Under the pieces are notes generated by a model. It had not been told where the DNA came from, made no database searches, and saw only the letters and a program-made list of their open reading frames with translations. From a virus, in the IMG/VR virus record IMGVR_UViG_3300002920_000041, positions 1 to 43,140 of that record: a DNA stretch of 43,140 nucleotides; one strand, given 5' to 3'. This document shows positions 1-26,312 of this stretch, piece by piece. The first letter of the stretch is position 1, and each line of letters opens with the position of its first letter. The translations under genes and the position numbers were made by a program.

Positions 1-77
1 AATCTACTGCGAACATCAGTTAATTCCCCTTTCGATGTTTTCGTTTATATCAAACAACTCATACCTCAATCTGCGCA
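1..77. repeat. Terminal direct overlap, identical to 43064-43140. It indicates a circular or circularly closed genome of about 43,063 bp.
   Basis: The 77 nt at the window start (aatctactgcgaacatcagttaattcc...ctgcgca) recur exactly at the window end. Gene 42696..43079 starts inside the repeat, and its ATG overlaps the TGA stop of 16..465 (TGATG) once the ends are joined. Confidence 0.9.
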
Positions 78-465
78 AAGCCTCGCGCGCGTCGAACCAC
101 GCCGAATTATAAGCTGTGCCGATCCACGCCCTTAAAACAGACGTGGTCAGCGTGCCATTCAAGGCGTGAGCGACTACTGCCCATGAGAATACAACGAGTC
201 GTGATGGCGGCTCAATTGCCTGAAGCGTGTCGTCAATCACCTCTTTTAATCCATTGAGTGTAGGCGCAGCCTCAAACGCCGCGCCGTCCTCATCAGAATA
301 GACAACTTTCGTATCAGGGTCATAAATGAATGCCCTGATGGGCAATTCAAGCTGCCCAATACGAAGAATCGAAACATTAGTGAACCTCAGAAAAATCATT
401 CCGCCCGTACCCTCAAAGCAAGGGTATAGCGGCAATGCTGCTTTGATGATATCGTTCTCACGCAT
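16..465 (-). CDS. Hypothetical protein (149 aa), leftward ORFan operon
   Basis: Long ORF. Its start overlaps the end of 458..994 by 8 nt, and its stop overlaps the start of the wrapped gene 42696..43079. No motif recognised. Confidence 0.8.
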   Translation of the reverse strand: MRENDIIKAALPLYPCFEGTGGMIFLRFTNVSILRIGQLELPIRAFIYDPDTKVVYSDEDGAAFEAAPTLNGLKEVIDDTLQAIEPPSRLVVFSWAVVAHALNGTLTTSVLRAWIGTAYNSAWFDAREALRRLRYELFDINENIERGIN

Positions 466-994
466 TATCCACCTCTGAGCGGTAATTAACCCGCAAGTAA
501 AACGCCATCCAGTCCTTGCTTAAATCTAAGAAAAATACGGGTCTGTACCACGCATAGGTCAGTGCAACCCTTTTGAAGCCTGCTGCGATAAACGACCGCG
601 CTCGCGCAATGTCTACCGAGCTTAGCTCAAAATTATCGATTGGAAAATCGTGAATAGGCTTATCAACGCCGTTTGCGCTTAGAATCCCACGCTCAACACG
701 CAGGTAATCGAGACGATCAACCTTACCTATCGTTTCGCTGCTCTGACAGCCCATATACAATGGAAGTGGGGGCGTTGTGAAGTCAGTGAATCGGAACGGG
801 ATCGGGTCGTGATTGACCCATAAGCCGTCATCAGAGAAGGAGATAAAAATGTAATCGAAGGGGAAATCTAACACAACCTCAACAGGCCTGGGCGGGCAGT
901 TGCTACCGCGGTATCGCCCACAAAAATAGGACGACCCAAAATTAGACGTAAAAAACCCATTCGGGAGCAGAACAAACTTACGCTTTGTTGGCAT
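458..994 (-). CDS. Hypothetical protein (178 aa)
   Basis: ATG at 994 is preceded on the minus strand by AAGGAAG. A TTGACA-N17-TATCCT promoter lies just upstream. No motif recognised. Confidence 0.8.
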   Translation of the reverse strand: MPTKRKFVLLPNGFFTSNFGSSYFCGRYRGSNCPPRPVEVVLDFPFDYIFISFSDDGLWVNHDPIPFRFTDFTTPPLPLYMGCQSSETIGKVDRLDYLRVERGILSANGVDKPIHDFPIDNFELSSVDIARARSFIAAGFKRVALTYAWYRPVFFLDLSKDWMAFYLRVNYRSEVDNA

Positions 995-1056
995 ATCGAT
1001 CTTCCTTGCTTATCTTGTTGATGGTCACGCCTAGCTTGGCTTGACACTTGCCATTG

Positions 1057-1085
1057 AGGATAGCAACCCTTTGAAGCCTTGTCAA
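1057..1085 (-). promoter_or_regulatory. Putative sigma-70-type internal promoter of the leftward operon
   Basis: The minus strand reads TTGACA (1085-1080), a 17-nt spacer, then TATCCT (1062-1057). It lies in the 120-bp gap between 1115..1561 and 458..994. Confidence 0.5.
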
Positions 1086-1114
1086 GGGCTTTTCGGAAAT
1101 TCCCTTAGAAGTCT

Positions 1115-1561
1115 TCAAAAGCGCGCCTGCTTGCGTTGCCAATCAAGGTAGCCCGTGAGGTATTCAGACGGCGTTGCGTAGCCTTTGATGAGCCGCTCAA
1201 ACGCCGAGCGCAAATAGGCTTTCTGATATCTTGAAATCGCCGCCTGAACTGAGAATCGGCGGCAATGCAGACGCCCGTCTCTATATAAAGGTTCGAAAGG
1301 CGCGATCAAATCGTCTCGATAGGTTAGATATTCTTGCACGTCTCCTGAGACTATGAAGAAAAACCCTGATGCCGCATCAGGAACTCCTGTCGGGTCAGAA
1401 GGGCGCGAAAAGACGAGATAGGTGGCGTCTTCAAACGCAGGCTGCGCATAACGCGGCGAGCCTACCGAGACGCCTAAAGGCGGGAATTCAAGCCTGAATT
1501 CCGCGCCAAAATCGTCAACATACTCGAATACCAAAAGCTCGCGCATCGCGTTCACTATCAT
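1115..1561 (-). CDS. Hypothetical protein (148 aa)
   Basis: ORF packed 20 nt downstream of 1582..2763. No motif recognised. Confidence 0.75.
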   Translation of the reverse strand: MIVNAMRELLVFEYVDDFGAEFRLEFPPLGVSVGSPRYAQPAFEDATYLVFSRPSDPTGVPDAASGFFFIVSGDVQEYLTYRDDLIAPFEPLYRDGRLHCRRFSVQAAISRYQKAYLRSAFERLIKGYATPSEYLTGYLDWQRKQARF

Positions 1562-1581
1562 CCCGCCAATCCTTTCACGAA

Positions 1582-2763
1582 TTAGAGTGGCAAGTGAAAA
1601 GAGCCGTTGATTTCCAAAACGGGGACAAGGTCTCTTCTGCAGCTCGCGATAGCGAAGAAGGGTTCATGTCTGCGCATCAGCTGGACGCGGCGCAGCGCGT
1701 GGTGCAGAAAGGAGCGTGTGATAATCAAGCGCTCAACGTCAAAGTAATACGAACGTTTACCTTTGAAAGCGCCTAGCGGATGCTCACCGCGTGGGCTATG
1801 CGCGCAAGCAACACAGAAATCCCCGACAAATTTCAGCTCAATCGCGGTTGCGGTGTTGCCGGTCAGAGGCAATCGCTTCATTTGCTCAAGCAGGCGCGTA
1901 GCCTCGCCGTCAGCAAAAACAAAACGCCCCGCCACGTCAAGCGCGGTCATCAAGCCAACATTAGGAGCAGGAATAGCGGCGGCAAGCATCTGCTCAATAT
2001 GAGCCTCTTTAAGCGGCAATAGCGCGTTATCCTGCCACAAGCACAAGCGTTCGCCTAATAAGAAAGCAAACGCCTGCCGATCGCCTGCGGCAAAGCGCAC
2101 TTGCCGAGCCGTATCAAGAGTGTCTAGCACCTCTAGCGGCAAGCGTAAAGTATTAATCAAAGCCGCGAAAGGTTGATCCGTCCATGCTCCGAGCCTACAC
2201 TTAAAAGGGCGGCTCATCGCGCCTCTCATCGGGAAATATATCCACAACCCGCTCTTAGAGCCGAGCAGTCTCACTTGTCGGATGTTTGTGAACTGAACGC
2301 TAGATTTGTAGGCATTCAAGCAAGCCGTAAGCGCAAAACAAGCCTGCTCAGTCGGACTCCCTAAGACGCTCAAAGCGCTCAGTGGCGGCTCATACGGCTC
2401 ACGAGGGACGGTTACATCATAAAGCGTTTCGCCTGTGGCGTCGGTTAAAATCAGCCGCCGCCTAGCACCGTCTTGCATCACACGAACGCCGAACGTACCT
2501 TCGTCGCTCAGACCACTGAGCAGTTCATACAGCTCAGCGCGCTTGAAAACGACAAGCAATTCGTCTGCGCCCTGAAATGCGCCGAGCGCTGCGCTAATGC
2601 GCCAAACGCCATTTGAAGCGCACAAGTGCAGCGTGTCCGCGTTGCGCACAAACTGCGCATGTGAGCATCCGCTTGCCCAATTGCTGCGCGTGCCAATTGA
2701 TAGCACAGCTGCGATCAGCCGCCGCGCGCGTTCACAATCGAATCGGGTTTCTTTAGAGTTCAT
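1582..2763 (-). CDS. Hypothetical protein (393 aa). Length and alternating-strand pattern faintly recall a DnaN-type clamp, but this is unverified.
   Basis: It is the longest ORF of the leftward block, and the plus-strand ORFs overlapping it are short shadows. It shares a short segment, KSG[LV][WY]I[YF]...P.K, with 21849..22691. Confidence 0.8.
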   Translation of the reverse strand: MNSKETRFDCERARRLIAAVLSIGTRSNWASGCSHAQFVRNADTLHLCASNGVWRISAALGAFQGADELLVVFKRAELYELLSGLSDEGTFGVRVMQDGARRRLILTDATGETLYDVTVPREPYEPPLSALSVLGSPTEQACFALTACLNAYKSSVQFTNIRQVRLLGSKSGLWIYFPMRGAMSRPFKCRLGAWTDQPFAALINTLRLPLEVLDTLDTARQVRFAAGDRQAFAFLLGERLCLWQDNALLPLKEAHIEQMLAAAIPAPNVGLMTALDVAGRFVFADGEATRLLEQMKRLPLTGNTATAIELKFVGDFCVACAHSPRGEHPLGAFKGKRSYYFDVERLIITRSFLHHALRRVQLMRRHEPFFAIASCRRDLVPVLEINGSFHLPL

Positions 2764-2830
2764 TTGAAAGCCATCCTGAAGCTATTCAGTAATCAGCCCT
2801 GTAAACAGGCGTTGCGTGGCAAGAGCAAAT

Positions 2831-2856
2831 AGAGGCGAGGCGCTCGCCCCGCCTCT
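2831..2856 (-). terminator. GC-rich hairpin; possible attenuator or terminator inside the leftward operon
   Basis: AGAGGCG (2831-2837) pairs with CGCCTCT (2850-2856), with further inner G:C pairs. On the minus strand it is followed by ATTTGCTCTT. It sits in the 101-bp gap after 2865..3644. Confidence 0.35.
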
Positions 2857-2864
2857 GATTTGCA

Positions 2865-3644
2865 TCAGTCAATCAACGGCTCATACACGATCGGGAAGCC
2901 CGCTGCAATCCGCGCTGTAGTCTCATCGTCAAGACGGACGAAAGCCTTCAGCGCATTTTCGACGAGCCAATCCCAGAAAATACAGCTCGTCAAAACAGGC
3001 AGGCTATCGCCGTAATTAACGAAATCGAACTCGACGTTCCATTCCTCTTCTGCAATCTGCTCTGCATACAGGTTGAGCCGATATTGAGAACCCAGAGCCA
3101 GATGCGCTTGCCGTCTTGTATCACGGTAATTGTACTCAACCGTAAAGCCGTGACTTTCAATCATACGGCTGCCGCCGACAATGGAATCCGTCTTGAAGAG
3201 ATCGCCAAACTTGACAGGCGGAATCGGCAAATCCTCGATGTAAGCCAGCTCTGACGCGGTCAAATCCATAAAGCGAGCCGCCTGAGAGAGGGACGTAGCC
3301 CCGCTAAAACGGACAACACCCGCCTTAGGGATATGGTAGAGGCGGTTGCCTGACGCCAACTTGAAAACGCCGTCGCGGTAAACAAGAAAGCGCAGCTCTT
3401 CGCAGGAGTCAATCAAGTCCATCGCCTCGACAAAAGAATCCTGCGCAGCGTAAAGGTCTTCAGCGATGACGTAAGTGAAATCGAACCACTGCTTGTGACG
3501 CAACGCGCTCTTCAAAGTTGACCGTGTGATTTCAAAGCGGGCTAGACGATCGCCAGTCAGGAATGGCAGAATTTCATCAAGGGCTTCAGCTTCAGTTTTC
3601 GATGGGACTTTGTTCAGTCCCGCTGCCATCACATAGATAACCAT
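2865..3644 (-). CDS. Hypothetical protein (259 aa)
   Basis: ATG at 3644 is preceded by AAGGAG on the minus strand. No motif recognised. Confidence 0.8.
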   Translation of the reverse strand: MVIYVMAAGLNKVPSKTEAEALDEILPFLTGDRLARFEITRSTLKSALRHKQWFDFTYVIAEDLYAAQDSFVEAMDLIDSCEELRFLVYRDGVFKLASGNRLYHIPKAGVVRFSGATSLSQAARFMDLTASELAYIEDLPIPPVKFGDLFKTDSIVGGSRMIESHGFTVEYNYRDTRRQAHLALGSQYRLNLYAEQIAEEEWNVEFDFVNYGDSLPVLTSCIFWDWLVENALKAFVRLDDETTARIAAGFPIVYEPLID

Positions 3645-3662
3645 GACTCACTCCTTAAAGGT

Positions 3663-4595
3663 TCAGAATTCCGATAGCTTAGATTGGAAACGCGCCTGCC
3701 AAAGCTCGGCTATTGCAGGCAATTGAAAGGCTGCGCTCAATTTGGCGTCCTGAGCCATTTGGCGGTACAGCCGCCGAAACTCATCAGGGTCAGATGCGCT
3801 CAGAATCGGCAGAAGCGTGCGATGGGCGTTGCATACGTATTCAATGGCGTCAGGCGTCACGAGCGGCGGTAGATAAGCTAACGGCTCGCGCAACAGGCCA
3901 CCAATGATTTCAGGCGCTTTGCTAAGCCCGAATTCGGCAATCCTGAGCGACACCGAGCCGCGTGAGGCTAAGCTTTGATACACATCTTCAATATAGCTGT
4001 ACACCTCCTTGAAATCAAGGCTCTTAAGACGGTAATCGTAATAGCCGCCGTAATCAGAAACGGCGGTAGCACGGGCGAGCGGATGCTCAAAGTAAATCGC
4101 CACAGCGTAATTGACGACAGCTCGCTTATACCATTCGTAGCGGTAAGATGGAGCGCGCCGCTTGACCGCGTCTCGAATTGCTTGCTCAAGAAGCATGATC
4201 GGGACTTTAGGCTTGCTGAAGTGAAGCAAGGCGCTGATGTAAGCCTGCTCCGTTTTGGTATCGCTTGATTCCGCGATAAGCGCATTCCAAATGTCACGGA
4301 CAAGCGCGCTATAGACAACGTGACCACGAACTGGATTCACCCGCAACAGGACAAACAGCACGCCTGTATAGCCGCCGACATACCATCTGGACCCGTTGTA
4401 GACAACGTCAAAGCGGTTGCGCCGCAAATCGGCGGCGACAGCCCTCAATTGCTCTAGCGCGCCAAACGGCTGAAGGATGTCCTCGACATTGAATAACAGA
4501 TCGCTGTACACCGTGACGGATTTGACAGCGGCCCCGTTATTATCGAGAGCGGTCTTAACAGCAGTGCTGCCGTCAAACATTACGCGGCGATCCAT
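3663..4595 (-). CDS. Hypothetical protein (310 aa)
   Basis: Long ORF in operon register. The nested ORFs 3968..4327(-) and 3975..4268(+) are alternative-frame shadows. Confidence 0.8.
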   Translation of the reverse strand: MDRRVMFDGSTAVKTALDNNGAAVKSVTVYSDLLFNVEDILQPFGALEQLRAVAADLRRNRFDVVYNGSRWYVGGYTGVLFVLLRVNPVRGHVVYSALVRDIWNALIAESSDTKTEQAYISALLHFSKPKVPIMLLEQAIRDAVKRRAPSYRYEWYKRAVVNYAVAIYFEHPLARATAVSDYGGYYDYRLKSLDFKEVYSYIEDVYQSLASRGSVSLRIAEFGLSKAPEIIGGLLREPLAYLPPLVTPDAIEYVCNAHRTLLPILSASDPDEFRRLYRQMAQDAKLSAAFQLPAIAELWQARFQSKLSEF

Positions 4596-4608
4596 GATAG
4601 CAATCCGT

Positions 4609-4968
4609 TCAAACGCGCGATTCGTACCATTGCAGCGCGAGCTTCAGCCCGCCGAGCGGATCGGTCAGGCTTTCGATGTAAGTCTCAATATCGCGCATCT
4701 TGACAGGTCGGGCTTTGTTTATTTGGTAAATCCGCCGTGCAATCAGGAAATTGGCTACAGCGACCGCCAATCGCTTATCCTCTGGGAGCATGGCGACCGC
4801 CTCTTGATAGGTCGTATCAAGCTCGACGCACGCGATATGCTCTAAGAGGACGTAATCAATAGCAGGCAACGCCGAAGCAATTGCTTTCGGATCGCTTTCG
4901 CCCGATCGGACGCTGTTGATCGCCATAATCAGGTAACTGCGAATTTCGCTTTCGAAAGGCGTTAGCAT
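4609..4968 (-). CDS. Hypothetical protein (119 aa)
   Basis: ATG at 4968 is preceded by AAGGAGG on the minus strand. Confidence 0.8.
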   Translation of the reverse strand: MLTPFESEIRSYLIMAINSVRSGESDPKAIASALPAIDYVLLEHIACVELDTTYQEAVAMLPEDKRLAVAVANFLIARRIYQINKARPVKMRDIETYIESLTDPLGGLKLALQWYESRV

Positions 4969-5096
4969 CGAACCCTCCTTTGAACACCCTGATGCTCTAA
5001 CCTAAAGATAGGGCTTCAAAGGCTATGAAGACAGCCAAAATGAGTAGAGCCTGCGCAATTGCAGGCTCTACCGATGAGCGCGCCTGTGTCAACCCG

Positions 5097-5369
5097 TCAG
5101 CCGAGCGCAGACGGCGGGCTGCCCCCCGATTCATCGCCGCCCTCTTCATCAGGCTCAAGCAGGTCTTGCAAGAGCGTTGTCAATTTGTGCATATCGCCAA
5201 AAGCTTGCTGCAGAAGGGTCAAGACGGCGGGCGGCAAGCTCTGAAACGCCATCTCTACGACACGCTTGTTAGCCTGCAGAATTGAGTAAAGCGAGCCGAC
5301 GCCCATCGCGACAAGCGTAACCACAAGCACGCCGATGACGATAACCAGAACATGGGTTACATCTGACAT
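5097..5369 (-). CDS. Small membrane protein with one TM helix and an acidic C-terminal tail; first gene of the leftward operon
   Basis: The ORF is open to 5444, but the ATG at 5369 (MSDVTHVLVIVIGVLVVTLVAMGV...) is preceded by AAGGAGG at about 9 nt. The C-terminus reads EPDEEGGDESGG. Confidence 0.7.
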   Translation of the reverse strand: MSDVTHVLVIVIGVLVVTLVAMGVGSLYSILQANKRVVEMAFQSLPPAVLTLLQQAFGDMHKLTTLLQDLLEPDEEGGDESGGSPPSALG

Positions 5370-5595
5370 AGCCAAAGCCTCCTTTGCCATACACAACTTA
5401 GCTGCCGCCTTCAAAATCGACTCCAGAGCGCCTCGCAATCGCAACCCATAATCGAAATAAGCCTTACACCGATTAGGCGGCTGTAATCGCTGTTTTGAGG
5501 CTTTCCTGTCGATTAGCGCGATTGGCTTTGCAAGCCATGCCAGACATGCCCTATTGGCGGAAGCGAGCGCGCCTCGAAAAGCGGTCTGCAGTCCA

Positions 5596-5659
5596 TTTTC
5601 AATTTCACTACAAAGCCGCCATAAATATATTTAAAGCGATTTTGTAGTGAAATTGAAAA
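5596..5659. promoter_or_regulatory. 64-bp near-perfect palindrome, copy 1 of 2, in the divergent control region between the leftward and rightward operons
   Basis: Arms TTTTCAATTTCACTACAAA (5596-5614) and TTTGTAGTGAAATTGAAAA (5641-5659) are perfect reverse complements. The AT-rich centre (ataaatatattta) is also self-complementary. The 23-mer ATTTTCAATTTCACTACAAAGCC is identical at 21668-21690. Confidence 0.85.
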
Positions 5660-5782
5660 CGCTGATTTCCCCTTTGCCCATCGCTATCTATGGCATGTCA
5701 GCCGCTTTAGCCGCGCTTCAATCTTCTGTTCAGCGTGATAAGTTGTGGATAGGAAAAGCGAGTGTGATTTGAGTGTTCAGCT

Positions 5783-6154
5783 ATGAACAGATTGCTAGGC
5801 ATTTTGCGGGCGCTCTTCGCCCGTGTGACCGTCCGTGATTCCGATGTGAGCGGCATTGCTCTCGTCTCTTTAGGCGTCGCCTTGCTAGGGCAAGGTCAAT
5901 CTCAGATCGCCCAAATCCTGAATGGGTTCGGATGCCTTGCAAGCGCTTACGGCGCATTGATTGTGTTGGCAGGCGTCTATGTCGTCCGGCGTTTCGCGGG
6001 ATGGCGGGTGCTGTACATGGTCAGCCTGATACCTTACACGGTCGCGATATTCATCTATGCGTTGGTCATCAATAATGAGGCGTCGTTCATGGTGATTTAC
6101 AGCATCTTCTATGGCTTGAGCTTGTCGAATCGGGGGCGGGACGGCGATGGATAG
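5783..6154 (+). CDS. Polytopic small membrane protein (123 aa, about 4 TM segments)
   Basis: Hydrophobic stretches include ALVSLGVALLG, CLASAYGALIVLAGVYVV, VLYMVSLIPYTVAIFIYALVI and FMVIYSIFYGLSL. It is the first gene of the rightward operon. Confidence 0.7.
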   Translation: MNRLLGILRALFARVTVRDSDVSGIALVSLGVALLGQGQSQIAQILNGFGCLASAYGALIVLAGVYVVRRFAGWRVLYMVSLIPYTVAIFIYALVINNEASFMVIYSIFYGLSLSNRGRDGDG

Positions 6155-6524
6155 CACGGCGTTGATTTTCGCTGTTTTGGGCGTGTTTCTTGCTATTGCG
6201 CATCTCATCAAGTCAAGCGGCAAGGTCGAGGTCGACCAGCGGGAGCAGTACACCAAAATGTTCAAAGACTTGTATGAGGAGTCCAGAGTTTGGCGGGATC
6301 GGCAAGACGCGCTTCAAAAATTGAACTTCAAGATAACGCTTCTGAGAGAGCGCGCAATTCTAGCGCATGACCTGATAGAAGAGCTTTTGGCTTCCTGCGA
6401 TCAGCTTCAAATCCCTAAGACCATCATCGCTTTTCTGTCTGAGGAGCGATGGCGCTCTATATTGACAGAAGAGTTTGATTACGGCGTGAAGCCGCCCGAT
6501 TCCACGCAAAGCGCTACGCATTGA
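6147..6524 (+). CDS. Membrane-anchored protein (125 aa) with an N-terminal TM helix and a helical C-terminal part
   Basis: Its start overlaps the previous stop. The N-terminus reads MDSTALIFAVLGVFLAIAHLI. Confidence 0.7.
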   Translation: MDSTALIFAVLGVFLAIAHLIKSSGKVEVDQREQYTKMFKDLYEESRVWRDRQDALQKLNFKITLLRERAILAHDLIEELLASCDQLQIPKTIIAFLSEERWRSILTEEFDYGVKPPDSTQSATH

Positions 6525-6558
6525 ATTTCCGATGTCACGGTCAAAGCACAGCGCCTAT

Positions 6559-6587
6559 TTTATGGTTTAGAACGTGAGCAGCATAAT
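6559..6587 (+). promoter_or_regulatory. Weak candidate sigma-70-type promoter
   Basis: TTTATG, a 17-nt spacer, then CATAAT, located 22 nt upstream of the 6610 start. Confidence 0.25.
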
Positions 6588-6609
6588 CCTATAGGGGGAT
6601 AAGCGAACC

Positions 6610-7425
6610 ATGTACATGGAATTGTATCACTCAAGCAAGACCATTCAGGTCGTGGATGCAAACGGCGAAATCATTGATATTCCAGCACCGCAACCACAGG
6701 TCTTAGGGCTACCCATTTTGCGTGTCAAGGAAAACTATTTGGTCATCGACGTGGCTTTCCTCAATGAGGACGGGGTTTTCCGCGAAGAGTTCAAGCTGAC
6801 GCGGAAACACACCTTGAACAGCGGCAAGGTGGTCGAAGAGCCTATCACTGAATTGGTCGCGTTTCCTATCGCGTCTGAAGGGTTTGAACGCCGCGTCCTG
6901 TTCCGAAAGCCGTATGAGGCGGGAAACAAACCTATTTGCCGCTCTGAAGACGGCGGTTACCCATTGCAGGAGTTTGCAGGGACTCTGAACGCCGCGATGG
7001 AATATGTCGATGAAGGAGGTGTCAACGTCACATGCGCTACATGCCCGTTTTCGAGGTGGAAACGCATTGATGGGCGTAACGTTCGCGACTGCGACCAGCA
7101 AATCCAAATCCCTGTCGCTGCCATGATTGATGATAAGATTTTTCCAGTTGCGGTTCGCTTTCGCAGCAGCGCTTACCGTCATGGCAAGCGGATTGTAGAG
7201 CGGATCGCTTATCTGAAAAGCCAGAACGTACCCCCTTACAACGCGGGCGTGGTGTTGACCGTTATGTCTGTCAGCCAGATGCTCGATAAGCCGGGGTTGG
7301 CAGGGTATGTTTTAGCGGTCAAGAGCATCGAGAGCAGCCTGTTTGTGAACCTTAGCGACGGTCAGAAAAGCCGCGTGATTGACCTCTACAACAGCCACAA
7401 CATCGAGACCAACGAAGTCTACTGA
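6610..7425 (+). CDS. Hypothetical Cys-rich protein (271 aa) at the head of the replication module
   Basis: A G-rich SD precedes the ATG. Cysteines are spaced as C(RSEDGG)...CATCPFSRW...C, suggesting a metal site. The function is not recognised. Confidence 0.75.
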   Translation: MYMELYHSSKTIQVVDANGEIIDIPAPQPQVLGLPILRVKENYLVIDVAFLNEDGVFREEFKLTRKHTLNSGKVVEEPITELVAFPIASEGFERRVLFRKPYEAGNKPICRSEDGGYPLQEFAGTLNAAMEYVDEGGVNVTCATCPFSRWKRIDGRNVRDCDQQIQIPVAAMIDDKIFPVAVRFRSSAYRHGKRIVERIAYLKSQNVPPYNAGVVLTVMSVSQMLDKPGLAGYVLAVKSIESSLFVNLSDGQKSRVIDLYNSHNIETNEVY

Positions 7426-7487
7426 TCCCCGATATCAGCAGCGGGGCGGGGTCACCTGCCCCGCATCTCATATCTGAGGAGGACGCT

Positions 7488-10400
7488 TTGGATAGGCTTT
7501 TCAAAGACAAGCCTTACCTCGATGAGGCGCGGCTTTTCCTTCAGGCTGTATGGGCGGCTTTTCCGCCTGAATCCATTCTCGGTCTTACTTACGACGTTCT
7601 TTACAATTCAAAAGGCGATTTGCGTAAGGGCGAGCGTCCTGTATGGTTAACGCGCGCGGGCTTAGCCGAATTTTTCGAGGAGGGGTTGCCTTCCTTACAG
7701 ACGCGCAATGAGTCTCAAGATGAATCAGGCAACATTTACTTCAGACCAGCGGCGCGTAAGCGCGTCATCATAGACTCAGTCAATGCGAATCGTTATCGGA
7801 CGGGGACATTAGACGAGCTTACGGTAGTCAATTCTATTTGGTGTGACATAGATTGTGTTGCGCGCGGGATAGACTACGACCGCGCTTTTGGCGTTTTGCG
7901 TGACATGCAAGCGTCAATCATTTGGTTTACAGGCGGCGGCTTGCAAGCGATTTGGCTGACTGACAAGCTGATCGACGTAAGCTCTTCTGATTTGGCGCGC
8001 GAATTCAAAGCGAGAGCCTTAGCTTTCCTGCTACCGCGTTTCAAAGCTGAAGGAATTGAGGTTGACACTAGCGTGCATGACGCGACGCGAATGCTGCGCT
8101 TAGTAGGCTTCAGAAATAAGAAACCCAGCCGCAAGGGCGCTTTCGCTACTATCCTTCATTTCGAACCCGATCGTCGTCTCGCCTATGCCGACTTCATGCG
8201 CATTGAATTGCCTAAGCCTGCTCAACCGATTGGTGGCAATGGCGGCAGGGATGATTACGTTACATTTGTAAACAATCCTGTAAACGACGGTAAACAAAGT
8301 GACGCGCTGTATTTTGTGAGCGGTGAATTTGTTGCTCGCTTAATCAAGCGTGAGCAGCCTGTTGAGCGGCATCCCGCCCTTGTGAAGGTCGCGGCGAGCG
8401 CGGCTAAGGCTGGAATACCTATGGCGGCGCTCATCCAACATTTGCGCCCGCTCGCCGTTGAATGGTTCGGTAAGACGGGCGAACAGCGCCGCGCCTTTGG
8501 CGAGCTGGACTCGCTAGTCGCTTGGGCTTACCAAAACGTTGAGCATGGCGTTAGCAGCGACCGCTATGCCGTCCGCCTGACTGAAAACGGTTTTGAGCTT
8601 GTCGATGACGCCGTAAGGCGTTACAGAAAGCCTATTGACATTGACTCCTTAAGACTAGATTCAGGTCAAGCTCATGCGATTGTAGAGAGAGAAGATCCTG
8701 AGCAGGCGGAAGAGGATTTAATCCCGTTGCGTCAAATCCGAGCCGAATTGCCGTCGGTGATCGGAAATTTCATTGACGCGACTCGGCGGCGCGGCGAAAT
8801 CGGGCGGACGATGCTAATCAAAGCTCCGCTCGGCAGCGGCAAGACGCATTCGGTGTGGGTCGAACTTCACAAGCGTGCGCTTGCCGATGACAAGTTCAAA
8901 GCGGTCTTTTACGGGCTGTTCACCTACACAAAAGAGCAATGGCGCGCTTATTTGGCGGATTTTGGTCTGCAGCCCGATGACGTTTTCTATTTTGAGGCTA
9001 GAAACGGTCGAAAGGGCAGTATAGGCTATTGCGCATTTCACGAGGAGGCTGAACAGGTCGCCAATAAAGGCTATCGCGTCTTCGATACGCTTTGTATGCG
9101 CTGCCCTCACTTATCTGAATGTCAACATAATTGGTACTTATCACAGAAAGAAGCCGCCGAAAATGCGCAGCTCGTCTATGCGCGCCACAACCACGCGCTC
9201 ATGCTGTTTGAGTTGAGCGACGGCAGAGATGTGGTTGTGATTGACGAGTCCATTGTGGATTTGATTGAAGCTCCTATACGGCTGGGCTTTGACGATTTCG
9301 CCGACGCAAACAATCACTTTCTGAGGGTGAACAGTCCTGACGCCTATCAAGCGTGCGATTCGCTATTGAGGGCTTTGCGGGCGGTTTTGGCGGCGACACC
9401 GTCAAAATCGACAAAGTACCTCGACTATGAGAAGCATGTCCGCGACGGGCGATGGGTCGTTGAGCAGCTCTTGAATTACATTGAAGGCGAGGACATGGCG
9501 GAAAAGCAAGCCGTGTTGGAATTGGCGTTAGAGCAATCAGATGATTTCTTTGATGAGTTGCATCCAATCATCAATTCGCAAAACAACACGGCTATTATCG
9601 ACGTGGACAACCTGCCGCGCCGCTATTTGAGTACTTTCATTCGCCTGTTGAGGAGCGAATACGGGCTTTGGAAAGCAGGGCATAAGGATTGGAATTCGCG
9701 CCTATTTGCTTTCAACAATCGCTTTCAGGTTTACCCTTTGCCTAGCATAGGCGTCGATAGGACAACTAAAGCTATCATCATCGACGGGACGGGCGATCCA
9801 AAGGTATACGATGGGCATATCAGGACTAAAGACGGCAAGAAATTAGAGCGCCGCGAAATGCGCGTTTACGCGCCTGCTGCCCCGCAGGTTGCCAAAGTCG
9901 TGCAATTCGCGGACGCATCGTTTTCTAAGTCCTCTTTAGCCCAAAACTTCACAAAGGCTGAAGAGACGGGCGAATCGGATAAAAGCTTGATAAGGCTAAT
10001 CCCTGAGGCGATGAAGCAAGGGCTTAAGGGACGCGGCGATATCATGACCTCAAAGGTCTTGATTGTTTGCTATAAGCCTATTAAAGCGCAGGTCAGAAAA
10101 CTCATCGACGCTGACCCAGTCCTGAAGGCGCTCAGCCGTAAAGGCGCGCTCGTGGTTGAGCATTTTGGCAATTTGAGAGGACGAAATGACTACGCGGATT
10201 TCGATTGCGCCTTGATAGTTGGGACGCCGCGCATCCCTGAGGCTGAACTCATCATGCGCGCTAAAGCACGTTTTCATGAAGACCCGAATCTGATCGGAGT
10301 CCAGCGGGTCACGCGCGCAAGAGCCTATAAAGGGACGCGGAAAGCGAGCCTGTTATTCGATTACGCTGACGATAGGCTCTCCGAAATCAATTACAAGCTG

Positions 10401-10937
10401 ATTGATGATGAGATAAGGCAATGCGCGGAGCGCATCAGACCGAATGTCCCTGATTTGCTCAAGAAGCGCGGCAAACTCATTTTGCTTTTGACCAATTTTC
10501 CAACTTCATACCGTGTCAACGAGCTGCACCTGCTGACTGACGTGCTGTTTGAGGAAAAGGTTGATGAGCATCTATCGCTGCTACCAAGACCTTTGGTTGA
10601 GTACAGCGGTGAAGAGCTAATCAAACTGTTGCAAGAGGCGGGTCTGCAGAATCGCGAGGCGATTCGCAAGGTGCTGCAGGAGCGAGGCTTGACAAGACGG
10701 CGACCGCGTTACAAAACCCGCAACAGCAATCACCGGGAACTCGCCAAAACGCTCATCGAATCCGTGATGCGGCGTGAAATGGACGAGGCTGCGGCAAGCG
10801 GAAAGCCTTACGAGGGGCGCTCGATTTCGGGATGGATGCATTTTTGCGCTCAACAAATTGAAGGATTCAGCTTGACATGGCACTCGACTTCTGCTATACT
10901 GAAGGAAATCACGATCAACACTTCAAAACGAGGATAA
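7488..10937 (+). CDS. Primase-polymerase (AEP-like) fused to a P-loop helicase or NTPase (1149 aa)
   Basis: TTG start lies 5 nt after GAGGAGG. The N-terminal part has WCDIDC (DxD) and HDATRMLRLVGFRNKK (primase-type R..G..N.K). The central part has Walker A KAPLGSGKTHS and Walker B VVVIDES. Confidence 0.7.
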   Translation: MDRLFKDKPYLDEARLFLQAVWAAFPPESILGLTYDVLYNSKGDLRKGERPVWLTRAGLAEFFEEGLPSLQTRNESQDESGNIYFRPAARKRVIIDSVNANRYRTGTLDELTVVNSIWCDIDCVARGIDYDRAFGVLRDMQASIIWFTGGGLQAIWLTDKLIDVSSSDLAREFKARALAFLLPRFKAEGIEVDTSVHDATRMLRLVGFRNKKPSRKGAFATILHFEPDRRLAYADFMRIELPKPAQPIGGNGGRDDYVTFVNNPVNDGKQSDALYFVSGEFVARLIKREQPVERHPALVKVAASAAKAGIPMAALIQHLRPLAVEWFGKTGEQRRAFGELDSLVAWAYQNVEHGVSSDRYAVRLTENGFELVDDAVRRYRKPIDIDSLRLDSGQAHAIVEREDPEQAEEDLIPLRQIRAELPSVIGNFIDATRRRGEIGRTMLIKAPLGSGKTHSVWVELHKRALADDKFKAVFYGLFTYTKEQWRAYLADFGLQPDDVFYFEARNGRKGSIGYCAFHEEAEQVANKGYRVFDTLCMRCPHLSECQHNWYLSQKEAAENAQLVYARHNHALMLFELSDGRDVVVIDESIVDLIEAPIRLGFDDFADANNHFLRVNSPDAYQACDSLLRALRAVLAATPSKSTKYLDYEKHVRDGRWVVEQLLNYIEGEDMAEKQAVLELALEQSDDFFDELHPIINSQNNTAIIDVDNLPRRYLSTFIRLLRSEYGLWKAGHKDWNSRLFAFNNRFQVYPLPSIGVDRTTKAIIIDGTGDPKVYDGHIRTKDGKKLERREMRVYAPAAPQVAKVVQFADASFSKSSLAQNFTKAEETGESDKSLIRLIPEAMKQGLKGRGDIMTSKVLIVCYKPIKAQVRKLIDADPVLKALSRKGALVVEHFGNLRGRNDYADFDCALIVGTPRIPEAELIMRAKARFHEDPNLIGVQRVTRARAYKGTRKASLLFDYADDRLSEINYKLIDDEIRQCAERIRPNVPDLLKKRGKLILLLTNFPTSYRVNELHLLTDVLFEEKVDEHLSLLPRPLVEYSGEELIKLLQEAGLQNREAIRKVLQERGLTRRRPRYKTRNSNHRELAKTLIESVMRREMDEAAASGKPYEGRSISGWMHFCAQQIEGFSLTWHSTSAILKEITINTSKRG
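10872..10900 (+). promoter_or_regulatory. Near-consensus sigma-70-type promoter with extended -10, internal to the end of the primase gene
   Basis: TTGACA (10872-10877), a 17-nt spacer, then TGcTATACT (-10 at 10895-10900), located 45 nt upstream of the helicase ATG. The -10 block TGCTATACT is the same as at 25740-25748. Confidence 0.55.
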
Positions 10938-10945
10938 ACACGAAC

Positions 10946-12793
10946 ATGTACAACTTGAGAGATTATCAGCAAGAAGCGGTGCAAGCAGTTTTAGATGATT
11001 GGGGGCGCCTTGAGCGCCCGATCATATTTATGGCTACGGGTTCAGGAAAGACCGTCGTCATGGCGGATATAGTCAGGCGTGTCCTAGCCGAACAGCCGAT
11101 GGCGCGTTTTCTTGTGATTTCTCACACCCGTGAGATAGTCACACAGACTGTAAAGGCTTTCGAACGCCATGTTGGCATTGAGATCAGCGTCGAGATGGGT
11201 GATTCCGTTGCGTCGCCTGACTCGAAAGTAGTGGTGGCAACTAGGCAGAGTTTATTCGGGTCTCGTCTCGACAGGATTGCTAAAGTTGGTTTTACCCACC
11301 TTCTGATTGACGAGGCGCATCACGTAGCGCCAGACAATCAGTACTGGAAAATTTACAATAGTCTTCGTGAAGCTAACCCGACCCTCAAGGTGGCAGGCTT
11401 TACAGCCACCCCTCAAAGGGCTGACAGGTTAGGGTTGGCTATCTTTACCAAAATCGGGTTTAGATGGTCGATTATATCGGGCATTGAGGAAGGTTTTTTA
11501 GTACCCCCTGCCCGATATCAAGTCGAAGCCGAAGGCGTAACCCTTGCCAATTTGCGGGTCAAGCAAGGCGACTACGATCTAGTAGGTTTGAATAAAACCC
11601 TCAAGGCGGCTGATTGGCCGTCGGTCGCCCTCGCCGCTTGGGAGCGGTTCGCTGAAGGGCGCAAGACTGTAGCTTTCTTTTCATCGATTGAGCTCTCTAA
11701 GGCGTTCGTTAAGATCGCCAAAGAGAGAGGGATTGCGGCGGCGCATGTGGACGGCGAAATGCCTTTTTCAACCAGAGAATTTATCTTAGCCCGCTTCATG
11801 CGGGGCGAGATTAAAATTGTGTCGAACGTGGCTGTGCTAACGGAAGGCTTTGATGAGCCCACCATCGAAGCCATTCTGTGGGCAAGGCCCACCATGAGTG
11901 AGGTTCTTCTCACTCAAGCTGTAGGGCGTGGCTTAAGACCCGCTCAAGGTAAGCAGAACTGCCTAATTTTGGATCTGACTCCCGCCGACACCCGTCTTTT
12001 GACGACGGGGACTCTGTTGGGTTTGACTTCTCGTTGCCCCTCCTGCGGCGTTACTTTTCTGAAAGGTTTCGAAAAGTGCCCACGATGCGGCGCGCAAATT
12101 TACACAGGTTCGGTTCAGCGCTCAAAGCCTGCAGCCGATGTCCCCGATTCGGGTGAAAAGAGTAAAGCGCTGTCGGGCTTTAAGAAAGATGTGGAAGGTA
12201 TCGAGGTAAGGGCGCGCCCAAAGGCAGTATTTGAGGGCGACACCGAAATCCCAGAAATCCACTCGTTTTACAAATTCGAGAGGATTGATACTTACTTCGA
12301 CACGAACATCAAAGGCCACGCTGTCGCCTGCAAAGGAGAGTGGGTCTTCATTTTAGACCCGATCGAGCTTTGGGATTCCGCGCTGCTTGAGCGCGCAAAG
12401 GCTAGTTTGGATGAGACTGACCCTCTAGCTAAAAAGGCGGCGGAGCGGATTGTCAGCCTTAGCGGCGGTCACAGCATTGCGGTCTTCCGTTACACGGAGG
12501 AGACTGCAGACTTAATCTTTATCGACAAGTACCCATTTTTGGAGCAGGCTTTAGACGCTTATCGAAAACCATCCCTGCTCGCTGGACGGCAAGCAAGACA
12601 GACCCGCTGGTGGAATGATCCCGCAACCCCCAAGCAGCACGCATACTTGCGGTCGCTGCAAAAACAGTACGACGTTACTCTGAAGACACAACTGCGATAC
12701 AAAGGCGAGGTCTCTGAAGCCTTAAACCTAGTCAAGGCTTTTGGATACTTGCGAAACACCCTTATGATTCTTGCTAGGAGGATACCGCAATGA
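10946..12793 (+). CDS. SF2 DEAH-box DNA helicase with a Cys4 zinc ribbon and a C-terminal extension
   Basis: Motif I MATGSGKT, II LLIDEAHH, III GFTATP, VI QAVGRGLR, plus CPSCG...CPRCG. The ATG at 10946 is preferred over 10877 because it lies after the primase stop and GAGGA sits 11 nt upstream. Confidence 0.85.
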   Translation: MYNLRDYQQEAVQAVLDDWGRLERPIIFMATGSGKTVVMADIVRRVLAEQPMARFLVISHTREIVTQTVKAFERHVGIEISVEMGDSVASPDSKVVVATRQSLFGSRLDRIAKVGFTHLLIDEAHHVAPDNQYWKIYNSLREANPTLKVAGFTATPQRADRLGLAIFTKIGFRWSIISGIEEGFLVPPARYQVEAEGVTLANLRVKQGDYDLVGLNKTLKAADWPSVALAAWERFAEGRKTVAFFSSIELSKAFVKIAKERGIAAAHVDGEMPFSTREFILARFMRGEIKIVSNVAVLTEGFDEPTIEAILWARPTMSEVLLTQAVGRGLRPAQGKQNCLILDLTPADTRLLTTGTLLGLTSRCPSCGVTFLKGFEKCPRCGAQIYTGSVQRSKPAADVPDSGEKSKALSGFKKDVEGIEVRARPKAVFEGDTEIPEIHSFYKFERIDTYFDTNIKGHAVACKGEWVFILDPIELWDSALLERAKASLDETDPLAKKAAERIVSLSGGHSIAVFRYTEETADLIFIDKYPFLEQALDAYRKPSLLAGRQARQTRWWNDPATPKQHAYLRSLQKQYDVTLKTQLRYKGEVSEALNLVKAFGYLRNTLMILARRIPQ

Positions 12794-15090
12794 GTTGGGC
12801 AGTCGATATCGAGACAACAGGACTCGGCGCGGGCGATGAGATATTGACAATCGCCCTGCTGCGAGAAGGGAACAGCTTTGTGATTAACGCGCCGTTTAGC
12901 GACGGCGCGTTTGATTCGGTGACGGATATTTTCAAGTCGGACGGCGTGTTCATAGCGCACAACGCCGTGTTTGATTTCGGTAGATTAGCGCGAATCGGGC
13001 TGCCTATACCTAAAAAGATATGGTGCACGCTGCAGATGGCTCGGTTATTGCACCCTGATAAAACGAAGACGTACTCATTGTTTGGCGTCGCCGAGTCGCT
13101 TGGAATCCCGATTAGCGATGAGCATCGCAGAATGAAGGCGCGAAACCGATCGGAAATCAGGCAATCGCGTGGGATGGATGCTCTTCAGGCTTCATTGTTC
13201 GACGGCGATCCTTACCTTGCGCGCTATGCGCTCTTCGACGCTGAACTTGCGCTAAAAATCTATCAAGCGCAGCAGGCGTTTGTCACAGACACCAACAAAG
13301 AGCTGGTCGACTTTGAGATGCGAGCCGTGCGCACCTATGCGCGGCTCACGGCGCGCGGCGTATGCATAGATGAGGCTTACGCTGATGAGCTGCTCTCGAA
13401 AACCCGTGAGGAGCTGAAAAGCGTGTTGGCAGAACTTGAGCGCGACGGGCTTAGCTCGCCTAATAAGCGATCGGCTGTGATGGATTACATTGCCAGAAAA
13501 GGGTGCAAGTTGCCTGAATACAACCCGTCAAGTCTGGTATTCACGGCGAAAGCCCATCAGGAATTGAAGCCTTTGTTTGATAGGGGAAAACCAATAACCG
13601 TCACTTTAGAGCACTTGTCTTTTGGCGCTGAAGCGATTGAGGAGCTGACGCGCGAAATCCCTGAGTTGTCTTTGCTGAAGCGATACAACGAGCTGCGCTT
13701 CTATGAAGGGCAGCTTGAGAACCTGCTTGAGTCAGCGTGCGATGGGCGGTTACATCCGCTTTACAACTTTACCCTGACAGGGCGTCGGGCGACTGAGCAT
13801 CCTCAGTTGCAGAACCTGAACATGGATTACATGAAGGGAGTCCTGATCGGGTCACCAGACGGAGACGCGACATTGCTTGAGTTTGACTTGAGCAATGCCG
13901 AAAACTGGATGGGGGCCATGATGAGCGCGGACTCGCTTTTCGCAGCCGCTTGTGCAAGTGGCGATTTTCATAGCTCTATGGCGAAAGTTTATTTCCCTGA
14001 GGATTTCGCCAAAGCGGAGCAGGCGGGCGATCGCGCAAAAATGAAGGAACTTCGCCAAAAGGGCAAAGGCATCACTTTTGGAATGGCATATGGCATGGGC
14101 GCTCAGACAATGGCAACGCGCCTGAAGATGCCGCTTGAGAGCGCAAAGAAAATCCTAGAGCAGGTCGCAAACAGCTTTCCTGCGCTAACCGCTGCTAAGC
14201 GGGCGGCGAAGGAGGCTTATGAGCAGCGCGGCTATGCGGTGCTTTGGAGCGGGCGCAAAGTCGCAGGCGGAGCGGCTAAGGACGCTTGGAATTACATATG
14301 CCAAGGTGGCGTAGCCGAAATCACTAAGCGGGCTGCCGTCTTGATTGATGAATTCCTGACAGAAAACGGCTTCAAATCTTACCTAGCCCTTGATATCCAT
14401 GACGCCTTGATCGTCGTTGTCTACCATGATGAGGCGTCGGCTATTGTCGAGCGCATCTCAGAGATAATAGAGGGGGTCGTCCCTCAATGGTGGAATCAAC
14501 GAACGAACCCAAACGCGCGATGGATAGCGCGCCCCGACTTTGATAAGAACGCTGAGAAGTGGGGGTATCGGCAGCTCGACATCCGTTTGGCTTTGCAAGG
14601 GAGTCGCAACGCCAAAGCGGAGTCAGAGCCTGAGAAAGGTGGTCTTGTGCAGGTTGACCTTGACAGGTTTCTTGACACACCTGTGCAGCGAGAGGTCGAG
14701 CTAGGCTATCCAATGTTCAATATCCTCTCAAGACCAATCAGGACTTTGCGCGATAGCGTTGAGCTTTTCAAAGAGCTGGATGCGGCAATCGAGGGTATGA
14801 AGGACGATCTTATAGCCCTGCCAATTCCAAATTCAAGCGAATGGCGCGATTTCAAGCGCGATCAAGCGCGCGTTTTGGCGGAGGCGTGGGTCGCCAATTA
14901 CGCGCATTTCAGAAACCCTGAAATGCCAATCGAATTCTTCAAAGCCGTCATCAAGCGGCTGGACGATCAAGAGCGCGTCGCCAAAGTTCGCAGCCGAAAA
15001 CGCGCTGAATACGAGGTCAAGGCTGCTAAGTATAAGCCAGAAGTCGCCGAAATTGTCAGGGTAAGCGGGGTAGAACCAAATGCCGATTGA
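12790..15090 (+). CDS. Family-A DNA polymerase with 3'-5' proofreading exonuclease domain
   Basis: Exo I VDIETTGL, Exo II AHNAVFDF, Exo III YALFDAELALKIY. Pol motif A FDLSNAENW, motif B RQKGKGITFGMAYGMG, motif C LDIHDAL. AGGAGG SD and an ATGA start/stop overlap are present. Confidence 0.9.
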   Translation: MSWAVDIETTGLGAGDEILTIALLREGNSFVINAPFSDGAFDSVTDIFKSDGVFIAHNAVFDFGRLARIGLPIPKKIWCTLQMARLLHPDKTKTYSLFGVAESLGIPISDEHRRMKARNRSEIRQSRGMDALQASLFDGDPYLARYALFDAELALKIYQAQQAFVTDTNKELVDFEMRAVRTYARLTARGVCIDEAYADELLSKTREELKSVLAELERDGLSSPNKRSAVMDYIARKGCKLPEYNPSSLVFTAKAHQELKPLFDRGKPITVTLEHLSFGAEAIEELTREIPELSLLKRYNELRFYEGQLENLLESACDGRLHPLYNFTLTGRRATEHPQLQNLNMDYMKGVLIGSPDGDATLLEFDLSNAENWMGAMMSADSLFAAACASGDFHSSMAKVYFPEDFAKAEQAGDRAKMKELRQKGKGITFGMAYGMGAQTMATRLKMPLESAKKILEQVANSFPALTAAKRAAKEAYEQRGYAVLWSGRKVAGGAAKDAWNYICQGGVAEITKRAAVLIDEFLTENGFKSYLALDIHDALIVVVYHDEASAIVERISEIIEGVVPQWWNQRTNPNARWIARPDFDKNAEKWGYRQLDIRLALQGSRNAKAESEPEKGGLVQVDLDRFLDTPVQREVELGYPMFNILSRPIRTLRDSVELFKELDAAIEGMKDDLIALPIPNSSEWRDFKRDQARVLAEAWVANYAHFRNPEMPIEFFKAVIKRLDDQERVAKVRSRKRAEYEVKAAKYKPEVAEIVRVSGVEPNAD

Positions 15091-20876: not shown

Positions 20877-21200
20877 TTAGCTCTGGATATCCTCAGGCAA
20901 TTCACCCGTCTCAAAAATGCGCTTCAGCAACCCACCAATGTAGTCTAATAGCAGTTCAGAGACGTATACGAATTCCGCCATGTAGAGACCTAAAATAGCC
21001 TCACTGCCCAGTTCGACAAGCTCCTCTCTCTTCAGCCCGTGTTTGCGGATCGCCAATTCCATGAAGGCGATGAACTTGTCATCAACGAGGCTCTCGACCG
21101 ATTCCTGCAAGTCTAAGTCCTCAATGATTGAAGCGACCGCGATCGAGACCAAAAGGCGCTGCTCTTCAGCGCTTAGCCGTTCGAACTTCTGTTTGCTCAT
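20877..21200 (-). CDS. Small, strongly acidic hypothetical protein (107 aa); a lone leftward gene
   Basis: TAGGAGG SD on the minus strand. About 25 Asp/Glu against about 11 Lys/Arg. It is transcribed divergently from the structural operon. Confidence 0.75.
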   Translation of the reverse strand: MSKQKFERLSAEEQRLLVSIAVASIIEDLDLQESVESLVDDKFIAFMELAIRKHGLKREELVELGSEAILGLYMAEFVYVSELLLDYIGGLLKRIFETGELPEDIQS

Positions 21201-26270: not shown

Positions 26271-26312
26271 ACCTCACAAGCGCCTTGCTAAGTTCGCCAT
26301 AGAGGAGGCGCT

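Follow-up and report, generated by a model that had tools for sequence, protein, structure and literature searches.

The palindrome and its two copies

The window analysed here is a DNA stretch of 43,140 nucleotides (IMG/VR virus record IMGVR_UViG_3300002920_000041), which represents a complete phage genome of ~43 kb. Its gene map contains just two divergent gaps, A = 5370-5782 (413 bp) and B = 21201-21848, and each of them holds one copy of a near-perfect palindrome of 64 bp. Palindrome A is located at 5596-5659 and palindrome B at 21669-21732. The parts of the two copies are as follows.

5596-5614, plus strand: left arm of A, TTTTCAATTTCACTACAAA, with two tandem TTTCA(A/C) units followed by TACAAA
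5615-5640: centre of A, 26 bp, an inner stem with GC (CGC/GCG) around the perfectly symmetric A/T core TAAATATATTTA
5641-5659, minus strand: right arm of A, the exact reverse complement of the left arm
21669-21687, plus strand: left arm of B, identical to the arm of A
21688-21713: centre of B, 26 bp, GCCATCA GATAATATTTAA TGATGAC
21714-21732, minus strand: right arm of B, again with the arm identical to that of A

Each arm is thus built of two TTTCA-type units, 6 bp apart, and TACAAA. The arms are placed 45 bp apart from start to start, and the 12-bp core between them consists of A and T only. The 23-mer ATTTTCAATTTCACTACAAAGCC is common to both palindromes. The initial annotation of the stretch had reported perfectly reverse-complementary arms, a self-complementary AT-rich centre, the 413-bp divergent gap, and a second copy with identical arms and an identical 23-mer in the only other divergent gap. 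All of this is confirmed by the sequence check, with the CGC/GCG stem and the symmetric A/T core found in the centre and the arms of the second copy found within 21669-21732.

When up to 3 mismatches are allowed, the 19-mer arm occurs at 4 places in the genome, which are the four arms, and has 0 matches in 100 shuffles. The weight matrix, built from 14 arms (7 palindrome copies from the window and its relatives), scores the four arms of the window at 40-43 bits and the next-best site at -0.6 bits. By chance, ~1e-5 perfect inverted repeats of 19 nt, with loops of <=60 nt, are expected in 43 kb. In single-strand folding the palindromes reach -21 to -25 kcal/mol; the corresponding z-scores are -9 to -11. 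The palindrome is not an assembly artefact, since related genomes assembled independently by JGI, ENA (k141) and IMG/VR also contain it.

Distribution in related phages

The DNA polymerase of the phage has 3 close relatives among 5.8 billion proteins, and the next ones are at 34-36% identity. The related genomes compared with the window are the following.

R1: a 43,370-bp genome (contig L130)
R2: two contigs, L127 (copy A at 829-892) and L123 (copy B at 2983-3046)
R3: a 23-kb contig

The two R2 contigs are taken as one phage, because the same polymerase is also present on a contig from the other contig's sample. Gene order is the same in the relatives, and the proteins compared are 82-87% identical to those of R1 and R2. 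The palindrome is found in all four genomes of the clade (window, R1, R2 and R3) at the two orthologous positions, with 7 copies in total.

A degenerate two-arm pattern run against the JGI metagenomes gives no matches beyond this phage clade. In 185,579 species genomes the 19-mer arm has 27 scattered matches, 0 of which have the partner arm; one genome carries two separate matches. DNA comparison reveals no cultured relatives, and portal matches are at most 26% identical. Contig L164, whose large terminase (TerL) is at 55% identity, has the structural module in common with the phage and lacks the palindrome; the element is therefore clade-specific. Kept in the relatives and with its arm partnerless elsewhere, the palindrome is therefore real and not a host repeat. 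Thus, the search of related phage genomes proposed in the initial annotation has produced seven copies in four genomes, and the concern raised there, that the arm might be a common host repeat, is answered by the partnerless matches. Altogether, a functional and conserved element specific to this phage clade is supported by the data.

Scans of viral contigs were also made. The scan with a 15-mer gave more than 100 chance matches. The palindrome-pattern scan brought up L119 (555-609), L120 (9-63) and L121 (1364-1418), with GC of 37-40%, which carry GTTTCACTACAAAAT-N25-ATTTTGTAGTGAAAC. Their arm GTTTCACTACAAAAT is 15 bp long and has 12 bases in common with the phage arm. In L121, for which the open reading frames (ORFs) are listed, the palindrome sits in a divergent gap upstream of terminase genes. 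We rejected it as a relative of the phage palindrome: 0 proteins are shared with the window, and the centre is neither A/T-rich nor symmetric. The likeness is probably a coincidence, although GTTTCAC is also the parS half-site.

Conservation of the arms and of the centre

The arms are nearly invariant. Counted from the alignment of the 7 copies, 8 changes fall on 266 arm positions, and the arm-to-arm distance of 45 nt is retained in 7/7 copies with 0 indels between the arms. Between the window and R1, identity is 79-87% in coding DNA and 50-73% in the non-coding flanks, which have indels, whereas palindrome B is 95.5% identical and has no indel. The arms are the most conserved non-coding DNA within the two control gaps compared.

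None of the arm substitutions is compensated. Four of the 7 copies have a mismatch at position 8 (T or A), and the inner pair CAYCA/TGRTG occurs in all four combinations. For the arms together with the inner stem, paired cells amount to 94.3% vs 94.4% in shuffles, and covariation is 0.082 vs 0.079. The arms are symmetric because the sequence of each arm is kept, which is the pattern of a protein site and not that of a hairpin selected for pairing. Hence, the invariant arms and their uncompensated substitutions point to recognition by a protein.

The core differs among the copies (TAAATATATTTA, TTAAATATTTAA, GATAATATTTAA, (TA)n), and its symmetry is mostly kept. A possible reason is selection for a centre that is symmetric and opens easily; another is hairpin-templated correction of a long palindrome. 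The centre of R2_A differs from that of R2_B at 4 positions, from R1_A at 7 and from W_A, of the window, at 11. In R2, and likewise in R1, the A and B centres resemble each other more than orthologous centres do between genomes, as would fit a homogenisation of the two copies or one reader for both. If both R2 contigs are one phage, both of its copies have an identical derived and perfectly symmetric centre, CACCATTAAATATTTAATGATG; this suggests that gene conversion has taken place between A and B or that one constraint acts on both.

Gene map and promoter context

The genes of the window form the following blocks.

42696-43079 and 16-5369, leftward: ORFan block, genes without known relatives
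5783-20815, rightward: replication-side block in the gene map of this analysis
20877-21200, leftward: single gene
21849-42640, rightward: structural block, whose first gene is a portal-MuF fusion

The replication-side block encodes small membrane proteins, a 1149-aa primase-helicase-like protein, an SF2 helicase, a family A DNA polymerase, a DNA methyltransferase, a 198-aa repeat protein, two tandem ECF-like sigma factors, a likely small terminase and the large terminase. In the 1149-aa protein (7488-10937) we note an AEP-primase-like DxD motif and the SF2-type Walker A motif APLGSGKT; it has zero matches in Pfam, PHROGs, NCBIfam and PDB sequences. Relatives of the large terminase (19481-20815) at 40-47% identity are frequent in metagenome-assembled genomes of Anaerolineae and other Chloroflexota, which is a weak hint that the host may be a member of Chloroflexota. 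Nucleotides 1-77 are an exact direct repeat of nucleotides 43064-43140. This 77-nt repeat is most likely the k-mer overlap of a genome assembled as a circle, rather than a terminal repeat of the physical DNA molecule.

Among intergenic words, GCTAAGTT is the one most over-represented; with the preceding TG it reads TGnTAAGTT. Elements of this type flank both palindromes.

5736-5744, plus strand: putative class II promoter element TGATAAGTT, no -35, 39 nt upstream of ATG 5783
5395-5403, minus strand: putative class II promoter element AGCTAAGTT (AG variant), directed to the leftward operon, ATG 5369
21612-21620, minus strand: putative class II promoter element TGCTAAGTT, leftward from gap B
21820-21828, plus strand: putative class II promoter element TGCTAAGTT, 21 nt upstream of ATG 21849, at the start of the structural operon
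26286-26294, plus strand: fifth copy of the TGnTAAGTT element

Four of the seven exact TGnTAAGTT copies lie in intergenic DNA, which is 4% of the genome. All five elements are oriented toward a gene or leader; four of them are 9-30 nt before a start codon, and three of those are 6-9 nt before the Shine-Dalgarno sequence. The element is kept at the orthologous sites that could be checked, with CG instead of TG at the R1 site right of A. In the relatives compared, no conserved -35 element is seen upstream of TGnTAAGTT. We therefore infer that these elements are promoters without a -35, which would depend on a phage factor (sigma and/or activator). Both palindromes would then lie in untranscribed DNA between divergent class II promoters.

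To the right of the palindromes, a paralogous module is common to A and B, in the order palindrome, 20 nt, TCGCT, 11 nt, TTGTCAGSCGGCTTT, 35-50 nt, TGnTAAGTTG, ribosome-binding site and ATG. Its conserved blocks in the window are listed below.

5681-5685, plus strand: TCGCT block right of A, 20-21 nt from the palindrome
21753-21757, plus strand: TCGCT block right of B
5696-5712, plus strand: conserved block of the A module, TGTCAGCCGCTTTAGCC
21768-21783, plus strand: conserved block of the B module, TTGTCAGGCGGCTTTG

The TCGCT block is present in 7/7 copies across a variable spacer (CTGCT in one of them), and by our own count the rightward ATG is 116-129 nt from the end of the palindrome in all seven. 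The duplication of the promoter module argues for a transcriptional role over an origin, and the promoter context as a whole favours such a role.

Promoters of another type are found elsewhere in the genome. These are near-consensus host-type promoters, TTGACA-N14-15-TGCTATACT or TGCTATCCT, at 1057-1085 (minus strand), 10872-10900 (plus strand) and 25721-25748 (plus strand); two of the three, at 10872 and 25721, have orthologues in the relatives. The promoter at 10872 is placed inside the 3' end of the primase-helicase gene. All three are probably host-sigma (early) promoters. No near-consensus promoters of the TTGACA type are found in gaps A and B.

Some further features of the gaps should be mentioned. 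Right of B in R1 (L130, ~18850-18875) a 12-nt tandem duplication, CGCTATGGCTTC / CGCTATGGGATT, adjoins the TCGCT block, and both R1 and R3 have a second GCTAAGTTG ~45 nt upstream of the main one. The motif CGATTTTTGAGGCWTTC occurs three times, always left of a palindrome (~5489-5510, 21266-21290 and 21345-21365). Both of its gap-B copies are conserved in the relatives and follow a conserved terminator-like hairpin (21399-21420, minus strand), within the long leader that precedes gene 20877-21200. This leader may be a region of attenuation or antitermination.

The decamer array and a candidate binding protein

Three features of the replication-side block are of importance for the reading of the palindrome.

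17141-17456: decamer array, 14 exact TGAAATTTCA, most of them spaced by 21 bp, in frame within gene 17025-17621
17025-17621, plus strand: gene of the candidate binder gp17025, 198 aa, with a long helix, a disordered linker and a C-terminal four-helix helix-turn-helix (HTH) domain
17614-18306 and 18303-19016, plus strand: two ECF-like genes of the sigma-70 family in tandem, immediately after the repeat-protein gene

The decamers of the array are palindromic and read E-I-S in frame. The relatives have 7, 8 or more copies of TGAAATTTCA, and even the homologue that diverges most keeps the decamer unchanged. Under the codon usage of the genome, the probability that GAA-ATT-TCA is chosen every time is ~5e-22. 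The lack of synonymous variation means that it is the DNA, not the peptide, that is conserved in the array. Hence, the array looks like a DNA-level array of binding sites or an origin inside gene 17025-17621. A parallel is the ori of phage lambda, which lies within gene O.

In the structural model of gp17025 the C-terminal domain has a predicted local distance difference test (pLDDT) score of about 90, and the best fold matches, SETMAR, KorB, CENP-B and ParB/Noc, are all DNA-binding HTH domains. The two sigma genes match TIGR02937 (E = 6e-8 and 4e-8) and phrog_351, and both proteins appear to retain region 4. These sigmas are candidates for recognising the promoters without a -35.

The initial annotation linked the array to the palindromes by a common pentamer and suggested that one DNA-binding protein may recognise all three loci. 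The units are indeed present in the arms and in the iterons, but they give no evidence alone, as TGAAA/TTTCA is found 132 times outside the three loci. The 11-mer TGAAATTGAAA, which had been reported verbatim inside the array, is there; its three occurrences in the genome are the two right arms and the array. Positions 3-12 of the arm (TTCAATTTCA) match the decamer at 8/10 positions. This match has p ~0.004 when genomic 19-mers serve as the null and ~0.025 with composition-matched shuffles, and the 11-mer has p ~0.0025, all computed post hoc. Thus, the 8/10 match and the 11-mer exceed chance and speak for the common protein, whereas the arm weight matrix finds no score above background on the iterons, and the AATTTCA word common to arm and array reads AAATTCA in 5/14 arms, in the relatives. 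The link between the palindromes and the array is therefore plausible but statistically suggestive only, and post hoc.

Proposed mechanism

We tentatively suggest, as the reading we prefer over each of its competitors, that the palindrome is a large symmetric upstream control site, common to both divergent promoter pairs and bound by a phage protein. Its half-sites are dyad-symmetric, conserved, fixed in spacing and located in promoter regions, as is characteristic of a symmetric operator.

A phage DNA-binding protein would fill the four sub-sites of the arms as a dimer of dimers. The best candidate for the binder is gp17025, which would bring two HTH domains on flexible linkers. The HTH pair would read TTTCA half-sites, arranged as direct pairs in the arms and as inverted pairs in TGAAATTTCA of its own gene. 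The earlier statement that the arms are too long for an ordinary operator was overstated, as their length equally fits a site for four or more DNA-binding domains.

The A/T core between the bound arms would supply bendability or meltability. It may also extrude under the negative supercoiling that comes from the divergent promoters.

The bound protein would switch both promoter pairs together, as activator or repressor. The class II promoters would need a phage factor, which may be one of the two sigmas and/or an activator.

A titration circuit can be imagined on this basis, although we hold it to be improbable. In such a circuit gp17025, bound to the TTTCA units of the palindromes, would set both promoter pairs, and the 14 copies of TGAAATTTCA in its own gene would act as a copy-number-dependent sponge or origin, so that replication would retune the occupancy and time the late switch. 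In a more extreme and likewise improbable variant, cleavage or resolution of the palindromes would take place at their symmetric A/T core.

Several observations weigh against the control site bound by a phage protein, or against parts of it. With the core included, covariation rises to 0.152 vs 0.095, a value reached by 0/500 shuffles, with the caveat of the tool that related sequences can score so without structural constraint. The maintenance of the core symmetry through A-T/T-A swaps points to a hairpin or cruciform, or to template-switch repair, as well. The four genomes are close, which gives the comparison low power. The palindrome centre is at about -96, -124, -135 and -240 from the putative starts, and with such uneven distances neither a simple contact activator nor a steric repressor suits every one of the four promoters. 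The element at 26286 has no palindrome nearby, and the promoter classes and start sites are predictions from sequence and conservation. As for the binder, the fold matches of gp17025 are not significant (E >= 0.14), its homologues are found in the clade only, and the exhaustive search with the HTH domain gave only spurious repeat proteins.

If the proposed control site is real, the gene-expression programme of the clade is run from two copies of one unusually large symmetric site. It would be a compact and tractable case of coordinate control of divergent promoters, with a possible coupling to replication, in a phage that combines two sigmas, promoters without a -35 and a candidate DNA-binding protein with a site array in its own gene. 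The element is also a ready-made specific bait for its binding protein. If it is an ordinary operator, the value is in the annotation of control regions and promoter classes in an otherwise unannotated lineage.

Alternative explanations

A replication origin or helicase-loading site is the alternative that survives best, and we consider it rather unlikely. An initiator or the 1149-aa primase-helicase would assemble head to head on the arms and open the core, and the other copy would serve as an additional origin or as a partner site in cis. This fits the four TTTCA units, spaced 5+1 bp and placed as inverted pairs around the 12-bp A/T-only core, the resemblance of the arms to the iterons, and the presence of a primase-helicase-like protein, an SF2 helicase and a family A DNA polymerase in the phage. 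The cumulative GC skew has its minimum near copy A; however, this minimum coincides with the switch of transcription direction, and no skew feature is seen at B. Moreover, the 14-copy iteron array inside the gene is a better origin candidate, and the downstream promoter module carried by both copies is needless for an origin. No cluster of DnaA boxes was seen by eye in either gap, where no systematic scan was run, and the one 8/9 look-alike at 5744-5752 is within chance.

We regard it as unlikely that the palindrome consists of two face-to-face promoters, in which the arm is the upstream element and the A/T core supplies the -10, for the host sigma or a phage sigma; transcription would run rightward from the left arm and leftward from the right one. 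TTCACT-16-TATATT can be read on both strands of A and TTCACT-17-TATTAT on the minus strand of B. Yet these matches are weak (9/12, no TG) in comparison with the near-consensus, TGC-bearing host-type promoters, the plus strand of B has no acceptable -10, and both R2 centres (CATTAAATATTTAATG) have no TAnnnT hexamer. The two phage sigmas are otherwise without assigned cognate promoters, and the arms are the most conserved non-coding DNA of the compared gaps; but this conservation is contiguous over 19-23 bp and is not split in two blocks around a free spacer of 16-17 bp. Outward readings do not have a conserved -10 at a workable distance, as TCGCT is 21-22 nt from TTGAAA.

Quite unlikely, in our opinion, is a role in which structure comes first, with the extruded cruciform or hairpin serving as a supercoil sink or sensor, or as the target of a resolvase, protelomerase or recombinase. 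The near-perfect palindrome with its very stable fold-back would suit it, and so would the double changes by which the core stays symmetric across genomes (TAAATATATTTA, TTAAATATTTAA, (TA)n), although template-switch correction can give the core symmetry without selection. According to the twin-domain model, negative supercoiling accumulates between divergent promoters, and the palindromes lie between putative promoters of this arrangement. Structure alone, however, gives no reason for the invariance of the arm sequence and for its identity at A and B, and the arm mismatches are tolerated and uncompensated. Scans with Pfam, PHROG and NCBIfam, which left out small proteins of the structural module, detect no recombinase, protelomerase or resolvase domain, and the four genomes show no rearrangement between the copies.

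An RNA hairpin in the mRNA leaders, acting as an RNase III site, stabiliser or attenuator, is very unlikely. The stem would be long and perfect in either transcript, and read-through from the terminase operon could reach B, as no plus-strand terminator is detected after 20815. Against this, the putative promoters on both sides fire away from the palindrome, there is no T-run, and the arms have no compensatory change. Rfam gives 0 matches at the gathering score, and below it only generic eukaryotic miRNA-hairpin models. Finally, a host repetitive extragenic or miniature mobile element without phage-specific role, which the two inverted repeats with a short centre would recall as a minimal miniature inverted-repeat transposable element (MITE), deserves almost no credit and is already largely refuted by the partnerless matches of the arm, by the confinement of the two-arm pattern to the clade, and by a copy number of exactly two in each genome, at orthologous positions and without target-site duplication.

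Other identities were tried and rejected. A T7-type promoter was suggested by the 23-nt arm, its CACTA core and 12/22 matches to the SP6 promoter by eye. Outside the DNA polymerase, no RNA_pol domain or motif-B signature is present in the phage proteins; since no single-subunit RNA polymerase is encoded, the palindrome is not a promoter of this type. An intrinsic terminator is not called at the palindrome by scans of the gaps, and its A/T-rich stem ends with GAAAA, then C/T, then G/C. Hence, the element is not positioned as a terminator, as had been noted earlier, and is not built as one either. A two-block promoter of the ECF type has no workable 16-17-nt spacer in the arms, neither inward nor outward. 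Sites of host factors (parS half-site GTTTCAC, LexA, CRP/FNR, NtcA, IHF and DnaA boxes), looked for by eye only, gave nothing convincing. Among the switch operator, origin and cruciform site first put forward for the element, the promoter context favours the transcriptional role.

Comparison with known systems

The Rep initiator of the F plasmid, RepE, binds both the iterons of the origin and an inverted-repeat operator that lies at the promoter of its own gene, and the phage would be similar in that one protein would read a repeat array and a separate inverted-repeat site with partial repeat sequence, by which the array would be coupled to the control of promoters (PMC13028717). Unlike in the RepE system, the array units of the phage are palindromic decamers inside a coding sequence. 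The phage site is 64 bp long, is present twice and lies far upstream of the putative promoters, not over the promoter of the candidate binder. Furthermore, the phage candidate has no sequence relation to Rep proteins.

Protein p4 of phage phi29 uses inverted-repeat sites between divergent early and late promoters, with an A/T-rich bendable spacer, for a coordinate switch. The sites of the window phage are likewise inverted repeats with an A/T-rich spacer between divergent promoters. However, the p4 half-sites are ~6 bp long, 15 bp apart and adjoin the core promoters, and the window phage has its own sigma factors; no homologue of p4 or p6 was detected in it. In the case of the OB sites of KorB from plasmid RK2, few identical palindromes are spread over the replicon, some of them far upstream of the controlled promoters, which is similar to the phage. 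The HTH domain of gp17025 weakly resembles the KorB/ParB-type HTH, with fold matches that include PDB 1R71 and 8QA8 and are not significant (E = 0.4). Unlike the phage site, OB is 13 bp long, and KorB has the ParB CTPase domain, which gp17025 does not have.

The putative promoters next to the palindromes find a parallel in phage phiEco32, where gp36 directs single-element sigma promoters, tAATGTAtA; the flanking TGnTAAGTT would also be one 9-mer around -10, without a -35, in a phage that encodes a sigma-family protein (PMC8948821). The sequences are unrelated, and the likeness concerns the neighbouring promoters and not the palindrome; the sigmas of the window also appear to retain region 4.

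Two systems resemble the architecture of the site itself. In site II of the SV40 core origin (GAGGC pentamers) and in the papillomavirus E1 sites, four pentamers spaced 5+1 bp form two inverted pairs at A/T-rich DNA. The TTTCA units of the phage have the same spacing, inverted pairs and A/T-rich DNA. However, the SV40 pairs abut, whereas those of the phage have a 38-bp gap; the SV40 initiator is an SF3 helicase, whereas the phage protein has an SF2-type motif I; and the phage site is present in two copies. The telRL site of protelomerases (N15, PY54, phiKO2) is a perfect palindrome of ~50-60 bp with sequence-specific arms and a symmetric centre. Unlike telRL, the phage has two sites per genome and a circular assembly, and no protelomerase or tyrosine-recombinase domain was found in it. 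The kind of site proposed here, a protein site between back-to-back promoters, is familiar, and this one is larger than most.

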